A stretch of 43,104 nt of DNA from Escherichia coli (GTDB taxonomy: Bacteria; Pseudomonadota; Gammaproteobacteria; Enterobacterales; Enterobacteriaceae). Within the stretch, counting starts at the first letter, position 1. Each line of letters opens with the position of its first letter. Of this stretch, positions 4,991 to 39,760 are shown in pieces. The stretch lies in assembly GCF_003334385.1 (NCBI RefSeq), contig NZ_QOWN01000036.1. One strand, written 5' to 3'. A model generated the notes under the pieces. That model ran no database searches, was not told the DNA's origin, and saw only the letters and a program-made list of their open reading frames with translations. Made by a program: the position numbers and the translations under genes.

Positions 4991-6084
<1,094 letters not shown>

Positions 6085-14960: not shown

Positions 14961-15683
14961 ATGGGACACAAACCCTTATACCGGCAGATTGCCGATCGCA
15001 TTCGTGAACAAATTGCGCGTGGCGAGCTTAAACCTGGCGATGCGTTACCCACTGAATCAGCGCTACAAACAGAGTTTGGCGTCAGCCGGGTTACGGTGCG
15101 TCAGGCTTTGCGCCAGCTAGTCGAGCAGCAGATCCTCGAAAGCATTCAGGGCAGCGGGACTTACGTCAAAGAAGAGCGGGTCAATTACGATATTTTTCAG
15201 TTAACCAGTTTTGATGAAAAACTGTCGGACCGTCACGTCGATACACACAGTGAAGTTCTGATATTCGAAGTGATTCCGGCTGACGATTTTCTTCAGCAAC
15301 AGCTACAAATCACCCCGCAGGATCGTGTGTGGCATGTGAAGCGCGTGCGCTATCGCAAGCAAAAGCCAATGGCGCTGGAAGAAACCTGGATGCCGCTTGC
15401 GTTGTTCCCGGATCTCACCTGGCAGGTCATGGAAAATTCGAAATATCACTTTATCGAAGAAGTGAAGAAAATGGTTATCGATCGTAGCGAACAGGAAATC
15501 ATTCCTCTGATGCCAACCGAAGAGATGAGCCGTCTGCTTAATATCAGCCAGACAAAGCCGATTCTTGAAAAAGTATCGCGTGGATATTTAGTTGATGGTC
15601 GGGTGTTTGAATATAGCCGCAACGCTTTTAATACCGATGACTATAAATTTACCCTGATAGCGCAGCGAAAATCATCGCGATAA
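14961..15683 (+). CDS. mngR: GntR/HutC-family transcriptional repressor MngR (FarR)
   Basis: 240-aa ORF with N-terminal winged-HTH (ESALQTEFGVSRVTVRQALRQL) and UTRA-type C-terminal domain; divergent from mngAB. Confidence 0.93.
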   Translation: MGHKPLYRQIADRIREQIARGELKPGDALPTESALQTEFGVSRVTVRQALRQLVEQQILESIQGSGTYVKEERVNYDIFQLTSFDEKLSDRHVDTHSEVLIFEVIPADDFLQQQLQITPQDRVWHVKRVRYRKQKPMALEETWMPLALFPDLTWQVMENSKYHFIEEVKKMVIDRSEQEIIPLMPTEEMSRLLNISQTKPILEKVSRGYLVDGRVFEYSRNAFNTDDYKFTLIAQRKSSR

Positions 15684-15686
15684 GCA

Positions 15687-15786
15687 CAAAAAAGGCCATC
15701 ATACGATGGCCAACCATGTCGAAACCGACAGCCCTTCGCCATTCCTGTAGAGGGAAGCGGCGAGGGCTATTTCTTATTACAGATAT
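15687..15786 (-). ncRNA. sdhX: Candidate 3'UTR-derived sRNA SdhX (RybD) downstream of sucD
   Basis: About 100 nt between the sucD stop and an intrinsic terminator (ggccatcgtatgatggcc followed by tttttt on the minus strand, 15687-15712). Assigned from memory of the K-12 annotation, not verified. Confidence 0.45.
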
Positions 15787-16656
15787 TTATTTCAGAACAG
15801 TTTTCAGTGCTTCACCGATATCCGCCAGGCTGCGAACGGTTTTCACGCCTGCGGCTTCCAGAGCAGCGAATTTCTCATCCGCAGTCCCTTTCCCACCGGC
15901 AATGATGGCACCCGCGTGGCCCATACGTTTGCCTTTCGGCGCAGTCACACCAGCGATGTAACCCACAACTGGCTTGGTAACGTGCTCTTTGATGTACGCA
16001 GCTGCTTCTTCTTCAGCGCTACCGCCGATCTCACCGATCATCACGATCGCTTCGGTCTGCGGATCTTTTTCGAACATTTCGAGAATGTCGATAAAGTTAG
16101 AGCCCGGGATCGGGTCACCGCCGATACCGACACAGGTCGACTGACCGAAACCGTAATCCGTGGTCTGTTTAACCGCTTCATAGGTCAGTGTACCGGAACG
16201 GGAAACGATACCCACTTTACCCGGTTTGTGAATGTGACCAGGCTGGATACCGATTTTGCATTCACCCGGAGTGATAACGCCTGGGCAGTTCGGGCCGATC
16301 ATACGAACGCCTGCTTCATCCAGCTTCACTTTCACGGTCAGCATATCCAGCGTCGGGATGCCTTCAGTGATGGTGATAATCAGTTTGATGCCTGCGTCGA
16401 TGGCTTCCAGAATGGAGTCTTTGCAGAACGGTGCTGGTACGTAGATAACAGAAGCGGTAGCGCCAGTGGCAGCAACGGCTTCACGCACGGTGTTGAACAC
16501 CGGCAGGCCGAGGTGGGTGGTGCCGCCTTTACCTGGGGTTACGCCGCCAACCATTTTAGTGCCGTATGCAATGGCCTGTTCTGAGTGGAAAGTCCCCTGG
16601 CTACCGGTAAAGCCCTGGCAGATAACCTTGGTGTTTTTATCGATTAAAATGGACAT
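15787..16656 (-). CDS. sucD: Succinyl-CoA synthetase alpha subunit
   Basis: 289-aa ORF recognised as SucD; 1-nt overlap with sucC. Confidence 0.95.
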
Positions 16657-27651: not shown

Positions 27652-27679
27652 TGGTTGATTGCTAAGTTGTAAATATTTT

Positions 27680-27712
27680 AACCCGCCGTTCATATGGCGG
27701 GTTGATTTTTAT
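27680..27712 (+). terminator. Intrinsic terminator of gltA
   Basis: cccgcc-gttcatat-ggcggg hairpin followed by ttgattttta, about 30 nt after the gltA stop. Confidence 0.6.
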
Positions 27713-28039
27713 ATGCCTAAACACAAAAATTGTAAAAATAAAATCCATTAACAGACCTATATAGATATTTAAAAAGAATAGAACAGCTCAAATTATCAGC
27801 AACCCAATACTTTCAATTAAAAACGTCATGGTAGTCGCATTTATAACCCTATGAAAATGACGTCTATCTATACCCCCCTATATTTTATTCATCATACAAC
27901 AAATTCATGATACCAATAATTTAGTTTTGCATTTAATAAAACTAACAATATTTTTAAGCAAAACTAAAAACTAGCAATAATCAAATACGATATTCTGGCG
28001 TAGCTATACCCCTATTCTATATCCTTAAAGGACTCTGTT
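27713..28039 (+). promoter_or_regulatory. Strongly AT-rich upstream region of the ybgD fimbrial operon (candidate H-NS-silenced promoter)
   Basis: About 330 bp dominated by A/T runs, contrasting with the flanking gltA coding sequence; the ybgD Shine-Dalgarno (aaagga) is at its 3' end. Confidence 0.4.
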
Positions 28040-31856: not shown

Positions 31857-32914
31857 GTGCTGGCAAGGGATTGTTGCTCGTCATCTGCCTGTTATTTCTG
31901 CCGTTGAAGTCTGCAATGGCGCTGAACTGCTATTTTGGTACATCTGGTGGCGCAGTAGAAAAATCAGAAGCGATTCAACCGTTTGCTGTACCAGGCAATG
32001 CCAAACCCGGTGATAAGATCTGGGAATCTGACGATATTAAAATTCCCGTCTATTGTGACAACAATACCAACGGCAACTTTGAAAGCGAGCATGTCTACGC
32101 CTGGGTAAACCCCTATCCGGGGGTGCAGGATCGTTATTATCAACTCGGCGTGACATACAACGGTGTCGATTACGATGCCAGTCTGGGAAAAAGTCGCATC
32201 GACACTAACCAGTGTATCGACAGTAAGAACATTGATATTTATACCCCTGAGCAGATCATCGCGATGGGATGGCAGAACAAAATTTGCTCGGGCGATCCCG
32301 CTAATATTCATATGTCGCGTACCTTTCTCGCTCGCATGCGGTTATACGTCAAAATACGAGAAATGCCGCCGCATGATTATCAAAGTACGCTTAGCGACTA
32401 TATCGTCGTGCAATTTGACGGTGCCGGTAGCGTTAACGAAGACCCTACTGCCCAAAACCTGAAATATCATATTACTGGTCTGGAAAACATTCGCGTGCTG
32501 GATTGCAGCGTCAATTTTTCCATTTCACCGGAAACACAGGTGATTGATTTTGGTAAATTTAATTTGCTGGATATACGTCGCCACACAATGTCGAAAACGT
32601 TCAGTATTAAAACGACCAAGAGCCAAAACGATCAATGCACCGACGGATTTAAAGTCAGTTCCTCCTTTTATACCGAAGAAACGTTGGTTGAAGAAGATAA
32701 AGCATTGTTGATTGGTAATGGTCTGAAGCTACGTTTACTGGATGAAAACGCCTCGCCTTATACCTTCAATAAATATGCTGAATACGCCGATTTCACCAGT
32801 GACATGTTGGTCTACGAAAAAACCTATACGGCTGAACTTTCGTCCATTCCAGGCACCCCCATCGAGGCTGGCCCCTTCGATACAGTGGTGCTTTTTAAGA
32901 TTAACTATAACTGA
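31853..32914 (+). CDS. ybgO: Fimbrial adhesin-like protein YbgO
   Basis: 353 aa from [23 protein letters not shown]; ATGA overlap with the ybgP stop; operon-terminal position typical of tip adhesins. Confidence 0.88.
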
Positions 32915-33065
32915 TTTACCATGATGCCCTTTGCCGCCGGAAAGGGCATCTCTTTCAGAAAATTGCTGATTTTCCCCTTTTCCTTGATTGCTGTTATTTT
33001 TTCCTGGCCCAGCTTTCTTTATGCTGTATCGATACACCAAAGAGAAAATAATGAGGGAGCGAAGG

Positions 33066-34112
33066 ATGCCAGTTTTGCAGTGGGGAATGTTATGTGTGCT
33101 ATCACTTCTCCTTTCTATTGGTTTCCTCGCGGTACATCTCCCGGCGGCGCTATTACTTGGGCCGATGATCGCCGGGATCATCTTTAGTATGCGCGGAATT
33201 ACTCTGCAACTTCCCCGCTCTGCTTTTCTCGCCGCCCAGGCCATTCTTGGCTGCATGATTGCGCAAAACCTCACTGGTTCGATTCTCACCACCCTGGCCG
33301 TCAACTGGCCGATCGTGCTTGCAATTTTACTGGTAACGCTGCTTTCCAGCGCCATTGTGGGTTGGTTATTGGTGCGCTATAGCTCATTGCCTGGAAATAC
33401 CGGTGCCTGGGGCTCCTCTCCTGGCGGCGCGGCGGCAATGGTCGCTATGGCGCAAGATTACGGCGCAGATATTCGCCTGGTGGCGTTTATGCAATATCTG
33501 CGAGTGCTGTTCGTCGCGGGGGCCGCTGTTCTGGTCACCCGCATGATGCTGGGCGATAACGCTGAAGCGGTTAACCAGCATATCGTCTGGTTCCCGCCAG
33601 TGAGCATTAATCTCCTGCTTACTATTTTGCTCGCGGTCGTTGCCGGTACAGTGGGATGCCTGCTGCGTCTTCCTTCCGGCACGATGCTCATCCCGATGCT
33701 GGCGGGCGCAGTGCTCCAGTCTGGTCAGCTCATCACCATCGAACTACCGGAATGGCTGCTGGCGATGGCGTATATGGCAATTGGCTGGCGGATTGGTCTT
33801 GGTTTCGATAAACAAATCTTACTGCGGGCACTACGCCCGCTACCGCAAATCCTGCTGTCGATTTTTGCTCTGCTGGCTATTTGTGCGGGTATGGCGTGGG
33901 GGCTGACCCGGTTTATGCACATTGATTTTATGACTGCCTACCTCGCCACCAGCCCCGGCGGGCTTGATACCGTGGCGGTCATCGCCGCAGGGAGCAATGC
34001 CGATATGGCGCTCATTATGGCGATGCAAACCCTACGCCTGTTCAGTATTTTGCTGACAGGGCCTGCCATTGCGCGGTTTATTTCAACCTATGCGCCGAAG
34101 CGGTCGGCCTAG
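33066..34112 (+). CDS. abrB: Membrane protein AbrB (AbrB-duplication family, putative regulator of aidB)
   Basis: 348 aa from [20 protein letters not shown]; polytopic membrane protein; the track ORF adds 26 upstream codons. Confidence 0.88.
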
Positions 34113-34900
34113 TGCTGGCAGCCAGGGCACCAGTAAAACGGGCGAGATGACAGCGTGGTTTTCTCAATGATGCTGCCACAACGTTCGCACGGTTCGCCAT
34201 CTCGATGAAAAACCTTAAAGCGAAACAGCGCCCCATGATGCTTATTCTCATCCACCTGCCCCCGCGTAGCGTAGGAAAATCGAGGAATCTCCAGTAACGC
34301 GTGTGCGAGTGCATCCAGTTGCGCCGCATTGAGATCTTTCGCTTTATGATTTCCAGTCAACCCAACCTGCCAGAGGATCTCCACCCGCAAATAATTGCCA
34401 AGCCCAGCCAGAAACGCCTGATCGAGCAGTAATCCAGCAAACTGACGGTTACGAAAGCGCGGCGACAATAATCGTTCTTTCACCACCTCCGGCGTCAGAT
34501 TCGGATCCAGCACATCGGGACCAACGCGTTGTAAAAACGGATGCGTGGTCAGTTGTTCCGGGGTCAACATCTCAATATCCGAGGCGCTATAAAGCAGAAT
34601 GGTTTTGTCAGCCGTTTGCAGTTTTACCCGCAATACTCGCGTGGTCTGCGGCTCTTCGCCGGTATCAACCACGCGCCAGACGCCGTAAAGCTGATTATGG
34701 CTGTAGAGCGTTAAGTCGTTGGAAAAATGAGTTAACAACGCCTTACCACGCGTTTCCACATGGGTAACGTGTTGACCGATAAGTTGTGATTGATAAGGTT
34801 TTAACTGCGGGAAGGCAAACCAGACATCAGTTAGTGGTTTGCCTTTGATCGCCGCCTCCAGGTTATCCGCTGCACGGCGGATCTCCGGGCCTTCAGGCAT
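34109..34900 (-). CDS. nei: Endonuclease VIII (DNA glycosylase/AP lyase)
   Basis: 263-aa ORF with N-terminal MPEGPEIRR catalytic motif and C-terminal zinc finger ([25 protein letters not shown]). Confidence 0.95.
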
Positions 34901-34935
34901 GGTGATATCCTTTTTTCATTCTTTATTAATCGGGG

Positions 34936-35670
34936 TTATGCTGCGACAACAATCCCCTTTTCGGCAAATGCAGAGCGTAGTCGGCGGGCGAACGCCAGTG
35001 CGTGCTCGCCGTCGCCATGCAGGCAGACCGTTTGCGCCGCGACCGTTGCCCATTCGCCGGTGATACTTTTGACTCTGCCGTGTTGCACCATCTCCAGCGT
35101 TTGCGCCAGCGCCTGTTCTTCGTTTTCAATCAACGCGCCTGACTGGCTTCGCGGCACCAGCGAGCCGTCAGCCTGATAACCGCGATCGGCAAACACTTCC
35201 TCGCGCGTTGTCAGACCATATTGCTTGCCTGCACGAATCAGCTCGCTTCCCGCCAGCCCGACGAGAATCAATGCTGGATCGCAAGCGTATACCGCTCTGG
35301 CGATGGCGTCTGCCAGTTGTGCTTCTTTCGCCGCCTGGTTGTACAACATGCCGTGCGGTTTGACATGACGCATTACGCCGCCTTGCGCACGGGCAATCGT
35401 TGCCAGCGCGCCAATTTGATACAGCGTCTGGGCGTAAACGGTTTCTGGCGGCAGCTGCATGGCGCTGCGACCAAAATTTTCCCTGTCGGGAAAACTCGGG
35501 TGAGCGCCAATCGCGACACCATTTTTTATTGCTTCACGCACGCAAGCCTGCATGATTTGCGCATCGCCTGCATGAAATCCACAGGCAATATTGGCAGAGG
35601 AAACCAGCGTTAATAGCTCTGCGTCGCTGGCGCAGCCTTCGCCCAGATCGGCGTTCAGGTCAATTTTCAT
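34936..35670 (-). CDS. pxpA: 5-oxoprolinase subunit A (LamB/YcsF family; YbgL)
   Basis: 244-aa ORF ([20 protein letters not shown]...). Confidence 0.92.
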
Positions 35671-36592
35671 TGTGCAGCCGCCACGCTAATTGTTCAAAAT
35701 AACGTTGCTGATCTTGCCGTGCTTTTAGTGCCTCTTCCAGTGAACACTGGACAAAATGAATCGGCTGACCGAGCGGAATTTGCGCCAGATGGTACATATC
35801 AGCCTCAATGATACAGGCAATACGCGGGTAACCACCGGTGGTCTGTGCGTCGTTCATCAACACAATCGGCTGCCCGTTATGTGGCACCTGCACCACGCCC
35901 GGTAACAAACCGTGAGATAACAGTTCGCGATCGGTGGTGCGTTTTAAAATTTGCCCCTGTAAGCGATAGCCCATGCGGTTACTTTGCGAGCTAAGCTGCC
36001 AGGGCGAACGCCAGAATGCATCCTGCGAGGCGCGATCGAACTCATGATATTCCGGCCCCGGCAAGGCGCGAATGCGGTTGCCCCACAGCAGCTGTTTAAC
36101 GCCCTGCGCTTCCATAGAATCACGCTTCGATTTGCCAATCGGGAGTCGGTCACCATCCTTCAGTAAACGGCCTTCCAGCCCGCCAATCCCCACTTTGAGA
36201 TCGGTGCTGCATGAGCCCATTACCGGCGGAACATCAATACCACCCGCGACCGCCAGATAACTGCGCATCCCGTGCTGCGGGCGTTTAAGCGTTAAACGCT
36301 GGCCTGCTTTCATCGGCAATCGCCAGCCGGTCCAGACGGCATTATCATCCAGCCGCGCTTCGCAACCGGCACCCGTCAGAGCAAACCACCCATCAGTTTC
36401 GAACTCAACAGTTAACTGACCGAGCGTGATCTCCAGCGCGGGGGCATTGGCGTCATTACCCACCAGTAGGTTAGCAATGCGTAACGCGGGCATATCCAGT
36501 GCGCCGCAGTGGCTGATACCCGACTGGCGAAAACCGTGACGACCGCCATCCTGCACAGTGGTATACATGCCCGCACGAATAATCTTCAGCAT
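35660..36592 (-). CDS. pxpC: 5-oxoprolinase subunit C (YbgK)
   Basis: 310-aa ORF; 11-nt overlap with pxpA. Confidence 0.92.
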
Positions 36593-37242
36593 ACTCCCTC
36601 CTTCTGCGGTACAAAGCGCACGCTGTCTCCCGGACGTAATAAGATGGGTTCGTCACGCGCCGGATCAAACAGGCTGAGTGAGGTATGACCAATCAACTGC
36701 CAGCCACCCGGCGTTGCCAGCGGATAAACACCAGTCTGCGGCCCGCCGATCCCGACAGAACCTGCCGGAACGAGTAAGCGCGGTTCAGCGCGCCGTGGCG
36801 TGTGTAGTTGTTCCGGCAAACTCCCGAGATACGGGAAGCCCGGTTGAAAACCTAAAAACCAGACCACGTATTCCACGGAGGAGTGCAATTCAACAACCTG
36901 TTTTTCGCTCAACCCGCAATGCGCCGCGACCACCGCCAAATCCGGTCCGCCTGCACCACCGTAAACCACCGGAATTTCAATAAAGCGAGACTCCGGCTCC
37001 AGCGCCTCGCTCTCCTCCCACCAGCGTTGCAAACGCTCTATGGCATCCAGCGCCAGCGACTCAGGATTACGCAAAATCACCGTGATATTGTTCATGCCGG
37101 GAATGGCTTCAACCACATTCGGCATATCCACCAGACGCTGCGCCAGTCGCCAGATCCGTTTCTGGCTAGCCAGCGTCACCGGCGGTTCCAGTTCCAGCAC
37201 TACCGCCGTTTCACCTATCAGATAACAACGCGCTCGTTGCAC
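36586..37242 (-). CDS. pxpB: 5-oxoprolinase subunit B (YbgJ)
   Basis: 218-aa ORF; 7-nt overlap with pxpC. Confidence 0.92.
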
Positions 37243-37264
37243 TTTCGATCCCTCTGATTATTCG

Positions 37265-38008
37265 TTATGCAGGATTAGGAATATCAATAAAGGTCACATC
37301 AAGATCGGTATTTTCATTCAGCCACTCGCTCAATGCGCGAATACCACCACGTTCAGTGGCATGGTGACCTGCAGCATAAAAATGCAATCCCTGCTCGCGG
37401 GCTGAATGAATGGTCTGTTCAGAAACTTCGCCAGTAATAAAAGCATCCACGCCAAAACGCGCGGCGCTATCGATAAAACTTTGCCCGCCGCCCGTGCACC
37501 AGGCGACGCGCTGGACCACCTCAGGTCCGGTATCGCCACACCATAACGGCTTACGTCCCAGACGCGCTTCAATCCAGGAAGCCAGCTCCAGTCCCGGCAC
37601 AGGCATGGTCAGTTCGCCCCACGGCACCAACGGCTCAATTTCGCCCATGACCGTGATCCCCAGTAACGCCGCCAGCTGTGCGTTATTGCCCAGCTCAGGA
37701 TGTGCGTCAAGCGGCAAATGCCAGCCATACAGGTTGATATCATTCGCCAGCAACGTTTTTAAACGGTTACGCTTCATTCCGCGAATGACCGGAGACTCTC
37801 CTTTCCAGAAGTAGCCATGATGCACAATGACCGCATCCGCGCCCAGACGCACTGCCTCATCGAGCAAAGCCTGGCTGGCGGTGACACCGGTAACAATTTT
37901 TTGCACCGTCTCTTTGCCTTCCACCTGCAAACCATTCGGCGCGTAATCACTAATCGCCGCGCTGTTCAGTTTTTCGTTAATCAGTTGTTCCAGTTCGGTG
38001 TTTTTCAT
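37265..38008 (-). CDS. ybgI: Nif3-family metal-binding protein YbgI (GTP cyclohydrolase 1 type 2 homologue)
   Basis: 247-aa ORF recognised as YbgI; first gene of the ybgI-pxpBCA-nei cluster. Confidence 0.92.
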   Translation of the reverse strand: MKNTELEQLINEKLNSAAISDYAPNGLQVEGKETVQKIVTGVTASQALLDEAVRLGADAVIVHHGYFWKGESPVIRGMKRNRLKTLLANDINLYGWHLPLDAHPELGNNAQLAALLGITVMGEIEPLVPWGELTMPVPGLELASWIEARLGRKPLWCGDTGPEVVQRVAWCTGGGQSFIDSAARFGVDAFITGEVSEQTIHSAREQGLHFYAAGHHATERGGIRALSEWLNENTDLDVTFIDIPNPA

Positions 38009-38095
38009 CTTCGCGCCTTCCGTATTCTGATAGCTACACCGTTAACATAGCGTTACCTCGCCAGTTCGTCGATAGCCAATCTTTTGACATATTAA

Positions 38096-39760
<1,665 letters not shown>

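Follow-up and report, generated by a model that had tools for sequence, protein, structure and literature searches.

A four-nucleotide overlap between the convergent nei and abrB genes of Escherichia coli as a probable outcome of incidental compaction

Introduction

The nei and abrB genes of Escherichia coli converge so tightly that both reading frames end within the same four nucleotides. nei encodes endonuclease VIII, and abrB encodes a membrane protein genetically tied to control of the alkylation-response gene aidB. An arrangement of this kind raises the question of whether the shared stop codons, and the antisense transcription that comes with them, reflect a regulatory relationship between the two genes or are an incidental result of how genes have been packed at this locus. 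The question was addressed in a 43,104-nt stretch of E. coli DNA (RefSeq assembly GCF_003334385.1, contig NZ_QOWN01000036.1), referred to below as the window, using the junction sequence, the corresponding loci of other Enterobacteriaceae and published transcript data.

The window aligns in reverse orientation with positions 737731-780834 of K-12 MG1655 at 99.97% identity (11 mismatches and one 1-nt gap), and positions 32901-35000, which contain the junction, are 100% identical to K-12. Coordinates near the junction were converted as window = 780835 − K-12 coordinate, which is exact there; below about 27,800 the conversion shifts by one base because of the sole 1-nt indel relative to K-12 MG1655, located in the gltA-ybgD intergenic region (window ~27700-27800).

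Results

Identity and transcription units of the two genes

abrB extends from 33066 to 34112 on the + strand and is annotated by RefSeq as a gene for a 348-aa protein, which matches TIGR03082 ('membrane protein AbrB duplication') with 286.8 bits. This is the sole NCBIfam match of AbrB; it falls in two stretches and ends at residue 339 of 348. The profile match points to a polytopic membrane protein with the duplicated AbrB domain, distinct from a DNA-binding AbrB. The product is named 'AbrB family transcriptional regulator' in RefSeq strains and 'putative regulator' in K-12, and the regulator-type RefSeq name looks misleading. A paper on the YdeO regulon was rejected as a source on abrB regulation, its 'AbrB' being an unrelated Bacillus protein. 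In Supplementary Data 2 of the SMRT-Cappable-seq study (PMC6131387), the abrB transcription start maps to window position 33032 on the + strand (K-12 747803, reverse strand), and abrB is monocistronic, forming operon 'b0715'. A mechanically called abrB ORF opens at a TTG at 32988 (374 aa), upstream of this published start. Because transcription begins downstream of the alternative TTG, the ATG at 33066 is the supported start of abrB.

nei lies at 34109-34900 on the − strand and encodes endonuclease VIII (263 aa), which matches NF007763 with 504.8 bits over profile positions 1-263 of 263. Work by Gifford and Wallace in 2000 is said to have described nei as the terminal gene of an operon. The SMRT-Cappable-seq data place nei last in the ybgI-pxpB-pxpC-pxpA-nei transcription unit (34109-38207, − strand), with starts at K-12 742628 and 742797, corresponding to window positions 38207 and 38038 (PMC6131387). 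In E. coli strain 28RC1 (locus L087, NZ_CP015020.1 4590167-4590957), the annotation marks nei as a pseudogene with a frameshift, and abrB and the CTAG junction are intact.

Geometry of the shared stop codons

The two coding regions overlap in the tetranucleotide CTAG at 34109-34112, which holds the stop codons of both strands: the abrB stop is the TAG at 34110-34112 on the + strand, and the nei stop is the TAG on the − strand formed by the complement of 34109-34111. Both were read from the window sequence, and the number of intergenic bases between the genes is zero. The K-12 RefSeq record carries the same overlap (nei, 745935..746726 on the + strand; abrB, 746723..747769 on the − strand), as does the RefSeq annotation of every further E. 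coli strain checked. The first-pass annotation of the window had named the genes abrB and nei, placed both stops in CTAG and reported that no intergenic space is left; the names are right by the two profile matches, the position of the stops is correct by sequence, profile matches and RefSeq, and the zero spacing is confirmed in both the window and RefSeq.

The consequences of point changes within the tetramer were enumerated. Of the 12 possible single-base changes, only C34109T and G34112A leave both proteins unaltered; six of the 12 abolish both stops at once. The two silent changes produce TTAG and CTAA, respectively, and together produce TTAA, which are precisely the variants present in relatives of E. 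coli (see below). Loss of the shared stops would extend the proteins by only a few residues: a backup in-frame TAA at 34134-34136 (+ strand) would add only 8 residues to AbrB, and a backup in-frame TAG at 34088-34090 (− strand) would add only 7 to Nei.

Overlaps with this geometry form a recognized class. [quoted passage not shown] In the 58 genomes of that study 1890 convergent overlaps were counted, 1218 of at least 5 nt and 672 of 4 nt or less. E. coli was credited with 58 convergent overlaps in the same study and with 75 convergent overlapping pairs in another (PMC4161906); a rough reckoning from these two sources would give around twenty −4 junctions per E. coli genome. nei and abrB are real genes lying tail to tail, and their stops have a common central TA; their geometry is identical to that of the class (PMC2174442), without any difference, making the pair a plain member. 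Throughout the class, nei-abrB included, any terminator must sit inside the partner gene. The overlap is thus ordinary, and it was already known from the reference annotation and a published overlap list.

Transcription termination and antisense overlap

Several searches were made for elements that might end transcription at the junction. A pattern scan for intrinsic or bidirectional terminators returned 4 sites, compared with 3.0 expected, none of them placed to end either gene, and RNA folds downstream of both stops were unremarkable (z = +1.51 on the abrB strand and −1.65 on the nei strand). A GC-rich hairpin with an A-run and a T-run between the stops is absent from the E. coli junction, and no Rfam family matched positions 33000-35000 at E ≤ 1. 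With neither a spacer nor an intrinsic terminator at the E. coli junction, read-in of each transcript into the opposite gene is obligatory.

For the nei strand, such read-in is documented. Adams et al. (PMC7815308, supplementary file 2) report a Rho termination region at K-12 747036 on the + strand, designated 'antisense abrB', where the reads upstream and downstream were 68 and 30 without bicyclomycin and 75 and 95 with the drug (Rho score 2.87, p = 7.6e-5). This coordinate maps to window position 33799, about 310 nt past the nei stop and inside abrB, so that the nei-strand read-in antisense to abrB spans 33799-34108 on the − strand; because the Rho score was computed over 800-nt windows and the counts are low, the position of termination is approximate and the resolution of this interval coarse. 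On the same strand, 50-nt windows at +175 to +250 and at about +300 past the stop contain 18-19 C and 8-10 G, with a weak C bias over the first 400 nt as a whole (114 C and 110 G). The nei strand therefore combines published bicyclomycin-dependent read-through with C-rich, G-poor RNA upstream of the termination region, the features associated with Rho. The Term-seq list from the same work contains no end at K-12 7464xx-7469xx (PMC7815308), and no coordinate in the junction region occurs in the available portion of the SMRT-Cappable-seq supplements (PMC6131387).

Read-in on the abrB strand, antisense to nei, is predicted to cover 34113-34500 (+ strand). The first 400 nt past the abrB stop contain 120 C and 93 G, and the published data examined gave no mapped 3' end for this strand. 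Because the RNA past the stop is terminator-free, C-rich and G-poor, Rho would be expected to end abrB transcripts inside nei. The 3' antisense overlap between the two transcripts, with its abrB-strand share predicted, thus amounts to hundreds of nucleotides, far beyond the 4 nt of coding overlap.

The first-pass annotation had argued from the coding overlap that the 3' ends of the two mRNAs are necessarily antisense to one another. The statement itself is borne out by the coding overlap together with the published nei-strand read-in of about 310 nt, but the coding overlap is not a special cause of antisense pairing: 276 of 370 convergent E. coli operons (75%) have complementary 3' ends, with a mean overlap of 286 nt, whether or not their coding regions touch (Conway et al., 2014; PMC4161252). 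As in those operons, transcription reads through into a convergent neighbor, and the mean of 286 nt is close to the approximately 310 nt of the nei read-in. The difference lies in how transcription ends, since many of the operons described by Conway et al. have an inefficient intrinsic terminator in a spacer, whereas nei-abrB has no spacer and no intrinsic terminator, and the end is made by Rho.

Comparison across Enterobacteriaceae

A comparative scan using one genome per species yielded 80 nei loci. The nei stop lies at the same codon in all 80. A convergent abrB adjacent to nei was found only in Escherichia, Salmonella and part of Citrobacter, and about 58 of the 80 species loci have nei without an adjoining abrB. 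The pair is fixed in Escherichia, whereas in Salmonella and some Citrobacter the genes are adjacent with variable spacing. Every Escherichia representative and eight Citrobacter-like genomes have the −4 overlap. Among 5426 complete E. coli genomes, 5425 carry the junction as one ungapped match of 100 nt, and all aligned sequences of the E. coli clade read CTAG.

The tetramer varies beyond that clade. On the nei strand the E. coli clade has CTAG, whereas E. albertii and two others have CTAA, and TTAG and TTAA each occur in three genomes. The alignment of relatives contains nothing conserved around the junction outside the two stops. The palindromic character of CTAG, to which the first-pass annotation had drawn attention, therefore has no special standing, since the −4 overlaps of relatives are formed by CTAA, TTAG or TTAA.

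Where abrB adjoins nei without overlapping it, the gap measures 6 nt in Salmonella enterica subsp. arizonae, 54 nt in subsp. diarizonae, 25 nt in C. sedlakii and 75 nt in one C. amalonaticus. The 54-nt spacer of subsp. diarizonae (locus L009, 3793-3849) contains what appears by eye to be a REP-type palindromic repeat, GCCTGGTGGCGCTACGCTTATCGGGCCTAC, and the abrB stop TAG of this subspecies falls in the terminal GTAG of the REP-like element, on the other strand. In three Citrobacter genomes (L017, 3846-4706 on the + strand; L032; L033) a 286-aa ORF is situated between nei and abrB, which are then about 940 nt apart; this inserted ORF is on the nei strand and has no NCBIfam match. AbrB retains its C-terminal motif (...ARFIS..AP...) in 20 loci with differing junction types, and the length of the protein varies there by no more than 0 to +6 aa. 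Given this constancy, the two stops are essentially fixed, and the junction states differ by the indels that lie between them. The last codon of Nei ends in a pyrimidine in 13 of 13 −4 lineages (CAC, CAT or CGC), as compared with none of seven gap lineages (AAA or CGG). A pyrimidine at this position in the −4 lineages is required by the geometry of the overlap, and apart from this requirement the last residue of Nei varies freely within the family (H, K, R, Q, T, M, S, C, L or I).

In most other Enterobacteriaceae nei faces an ORF of 426-428 aa, usually 45-120 nt away, and the Klebsiella pneumoniae copy of this ORF scores as the citrate synthase gene gltA (TIGR01798, 806.9 bits). Eight nei-gltA spacers were folded, and all eight contain a strong GC-rich hairpin, in most cases between an A-run and a T-run, as exemplified by AAAAAAACGCGCC-AGCA-GGCGCGTTTTTAT in K. 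pneumoniae. In form these hairpins are terminator-like, resembling bidirectional intrinsic terminators. The nei-gltA junction of these genera and the E. coli junction have in common the same nei, with the same stop position, last in its operon and convergent with its partner; they differ in that the eight examined nei-gltA junctions have a 45-120 nt spacer with a hairpin, whereas E. coli has abrB at −4 and lacks a hairpin terminator. In E. coli, abrB and the ybgOPQD fimbrial genes separate nei from gltA. E. coli gltA keeps its own strong intrinsic terminator at 27678-27705 (+ strand), composed of a 12-bp stem, AACCCGCC...GGCGGGTT, followed by a T-run. On the other strand no T-run directly follows the stem, so in contrast to most of the folded nei-gltA hairpins the element appears to act in one direction only.

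Another type of partner is a gene for an AraC-family regulator, which converges on nei with a 2-nt gap in several Citrobacter and with a 10-nt overlap in a Pluralibacter genome. The gene lies on the − strand at 3795-46xx/47xx in loci L012, L013, L014, L023 and L026 and at 3783-4673 in L052. The slot past the nei stop is thus variable, and different genes have repeatedly been packed tightly against nei.

Origin and maintenance of the overlap

Taken together, the data are very probably explained by incidental compaction at an insertion-prone slot, followed by purifying selection on two coupled stops and accompanied by obligatory Rho-terminated read-in. In this model, abrB, together with the fimbrial operon in the case of E. 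coli, would have come between nei and gltA in the lineage of Escherichia, Salmonella and Citrobacter, and its arrival would have cut nei off from the terminator-bearing nei-gltA spacer known in other genera. In the proposed direction of change, the spacer beside nei may then have shrunk to the −4 limit, at which the stops share their central TA with neither protein changed. Once reached, the −4 state would persist, since few point changes in the tetramer leave both stops intact and the outer transitions interconvert the four permitted forms. Variation over all four forms marks the palindrome as incidental.

Since the junction leaves no space for an intrinsic terminator, both transcription units would continue into the opposite gene until Rho ends the untranslated antisense RNA, and the two mRNAs would consequently be complementary over a few hundred nucleotides at their 3' ends, as most convergent E. 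coli operons are. Mutual interference between nei and abrB, although putative, is plausible; whether by polymerase collision or RNase III, it would probably be a weak by-product of the incidental overlap, given the low nei-strand coverage in the single dataset. Purifying selection on the two stops and the rarity of precise indels suffice to explain the tetramer and last-codon patterns, and selection for the overlap is not required. The junction, of little importance in itself, illustrates well the way in which 4-nt overlaps between tail-to-tail genes may arise and persist, and how such a junction forces Rho-terminated read-in.

Alternative explanations

The strongest competing explanation, which we nonetheless consider unlikely, is that nei-abrB is a selected convergent excludon, acting through colliding polymerases, RNase III cleavage of a duplex of several hundred nucleotides, or both, and that the tight junction has been kept to guarantee transcript overlap. 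By definition, expression of one gene in an excludon excludes that of the other via RNase III or interference; for nei-abrB this effect is putative. Several lines of evidence are consistent with the idea. The pair appears in Table 1 of the ExcludonFinder study as one of the 165 convergent excludons that MG1655 showed in half or more of 58 RNA-seq samples (Sanmartin et al., 2025; PMC12288877), and overlap of transcripts from opposite strands follows from published data on the nei strand together with the predicted read-in on the abrB strand. Nei-strand read-in is documented (PMC7815308), and the terminator-free junction makes overlap obligatory. Convergent excludons as a class show less single-cell co-expression, amounting to mutual exclusion, and higher synteny than other neighbors (PMC12288877). 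In addition, the fixation of the −4 state in Escherichia and its recurrence in several Citrobacter groups could reflect selection rather than inertia.

A precedent for antisense regulation is provided by mscL-arfA, which is also convergent, with the 3' part of an mRNA complementary to the 3' coding region of the partner as in nei-abrB, and which is likewise of limited range within Enterobacterales (PMC10070815). Deletion of arfA raised mscL mRNA more than 2-fold, and complementation restored it (PMC10070815). The two systems differ in that the 3' UTR of mscL overlaps the arfA coding region, whereas in nei-abrB both coding regions overlap, by 4 nt.

Other points speak against the idea. ExcludonFinder calls any overlap of coverage-defined transcript ends (PMC12288877); since any two expressed genes with overlapping coding regions qualify, the listing of nei-abrB is nearly automatic, and the 3' transcript overlap that it has in common with the other MG1655 excludons was called from coverage only. 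The exclusion effect is a class-level statistic, and p19-based validation of dsRNA was, according to the authors, not feasible for convergent pairs as a class (PMC12288877). Overlap of convergent operons is in any case the rule, occurring in 75% (PMC4161252). The pairing itself is young and unstable: most Enterobacteriaceae lack abrB beside nei, and spacers or an inserted gene occur in Salmonella and some Citrobacter. Reads on the nei strand are also low, at 68 per 800 nt as compared with 588 for sucA in the same table (PMC7815308), and polymerase collisions should accordingly be rare. Finally, a functional link between Nei and AbrB was not found. If mutual interference were shown, nei-abrB would become one more validated convergent excludon of E. 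coli, the concept and the listing of the pair having already been published.

More speculative still, and in our judgment quite improbable, is a selected reciprocal switch in which read-in would couple the oxidative base-damage glycosylase to a membrane protein linked to aidB. Under such an arrangement, phenotypes of abrB mutants might in part reflect changed processing of nei-operon 3' ends.

There is very little likelihood that the palindromic CTAG is itself functional, either as a protein-binding site or as a site related to restriction or repair. On the nei strand the site reads CTAGG, which has the form of a target of Vsr very-short-patch repair (CTWGG), and the tetramer is depleted across the 43-kb window, with 6 copies where trinucleotide frequencies predict about 31 and base composition 168. 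The depletion, however, is a general property of the tetramer in the window sequence and not of the junction site. The functional reading was rejected because the tetramer varies among relatives, which have CTAA, TTAG or TTAA, forms reachable by doubly silent changes; neither conservation beyond the two stops nor an RNA family match points to a functional site.

That the overlap is an annotation artefact, with one frame ending earlier or being no real gene, has a negligible chance of being correct and is effectively refuted: abrB is poorly characterised and the last 9 residues of its product lie outside the family domain, but Nei is full-length on an equivalog model (1-263 of 263) with a stop position fixed in 80 loci, the AbrB C-terminal motif and length are kept in 20 loci of varied junction type, and the stops were read straight from the sequence, independently of the choice of start.

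Other features of the window

The six copies of CTAG in the window begin at 5643, 15117, 17965, 27971, 34109 and 37166. Three of them, at 5643, 17965 and 37166, are contained in the hexamer GCTAGC. Two of the copies other than that at the junction were placed exactly, in tolQ and mngR, and the placement of the rest is approximate (pxpB and two intergenic sites).

Another closely packed convergent junction is located at ~15680-15790 (K-12 765049-765153), where SdhX, an sRNA that closes the suc operon, has its end 2 nt from the stop codon of mngR. The SdhX terminator hairpin occupies 15711-15694 on the − strand. Adams et al. (PMC7815308) also report a Rho termination region at K-12 765604 on the + strand, antisense to mngR, indicating that suc-operon read-through enters mngR.
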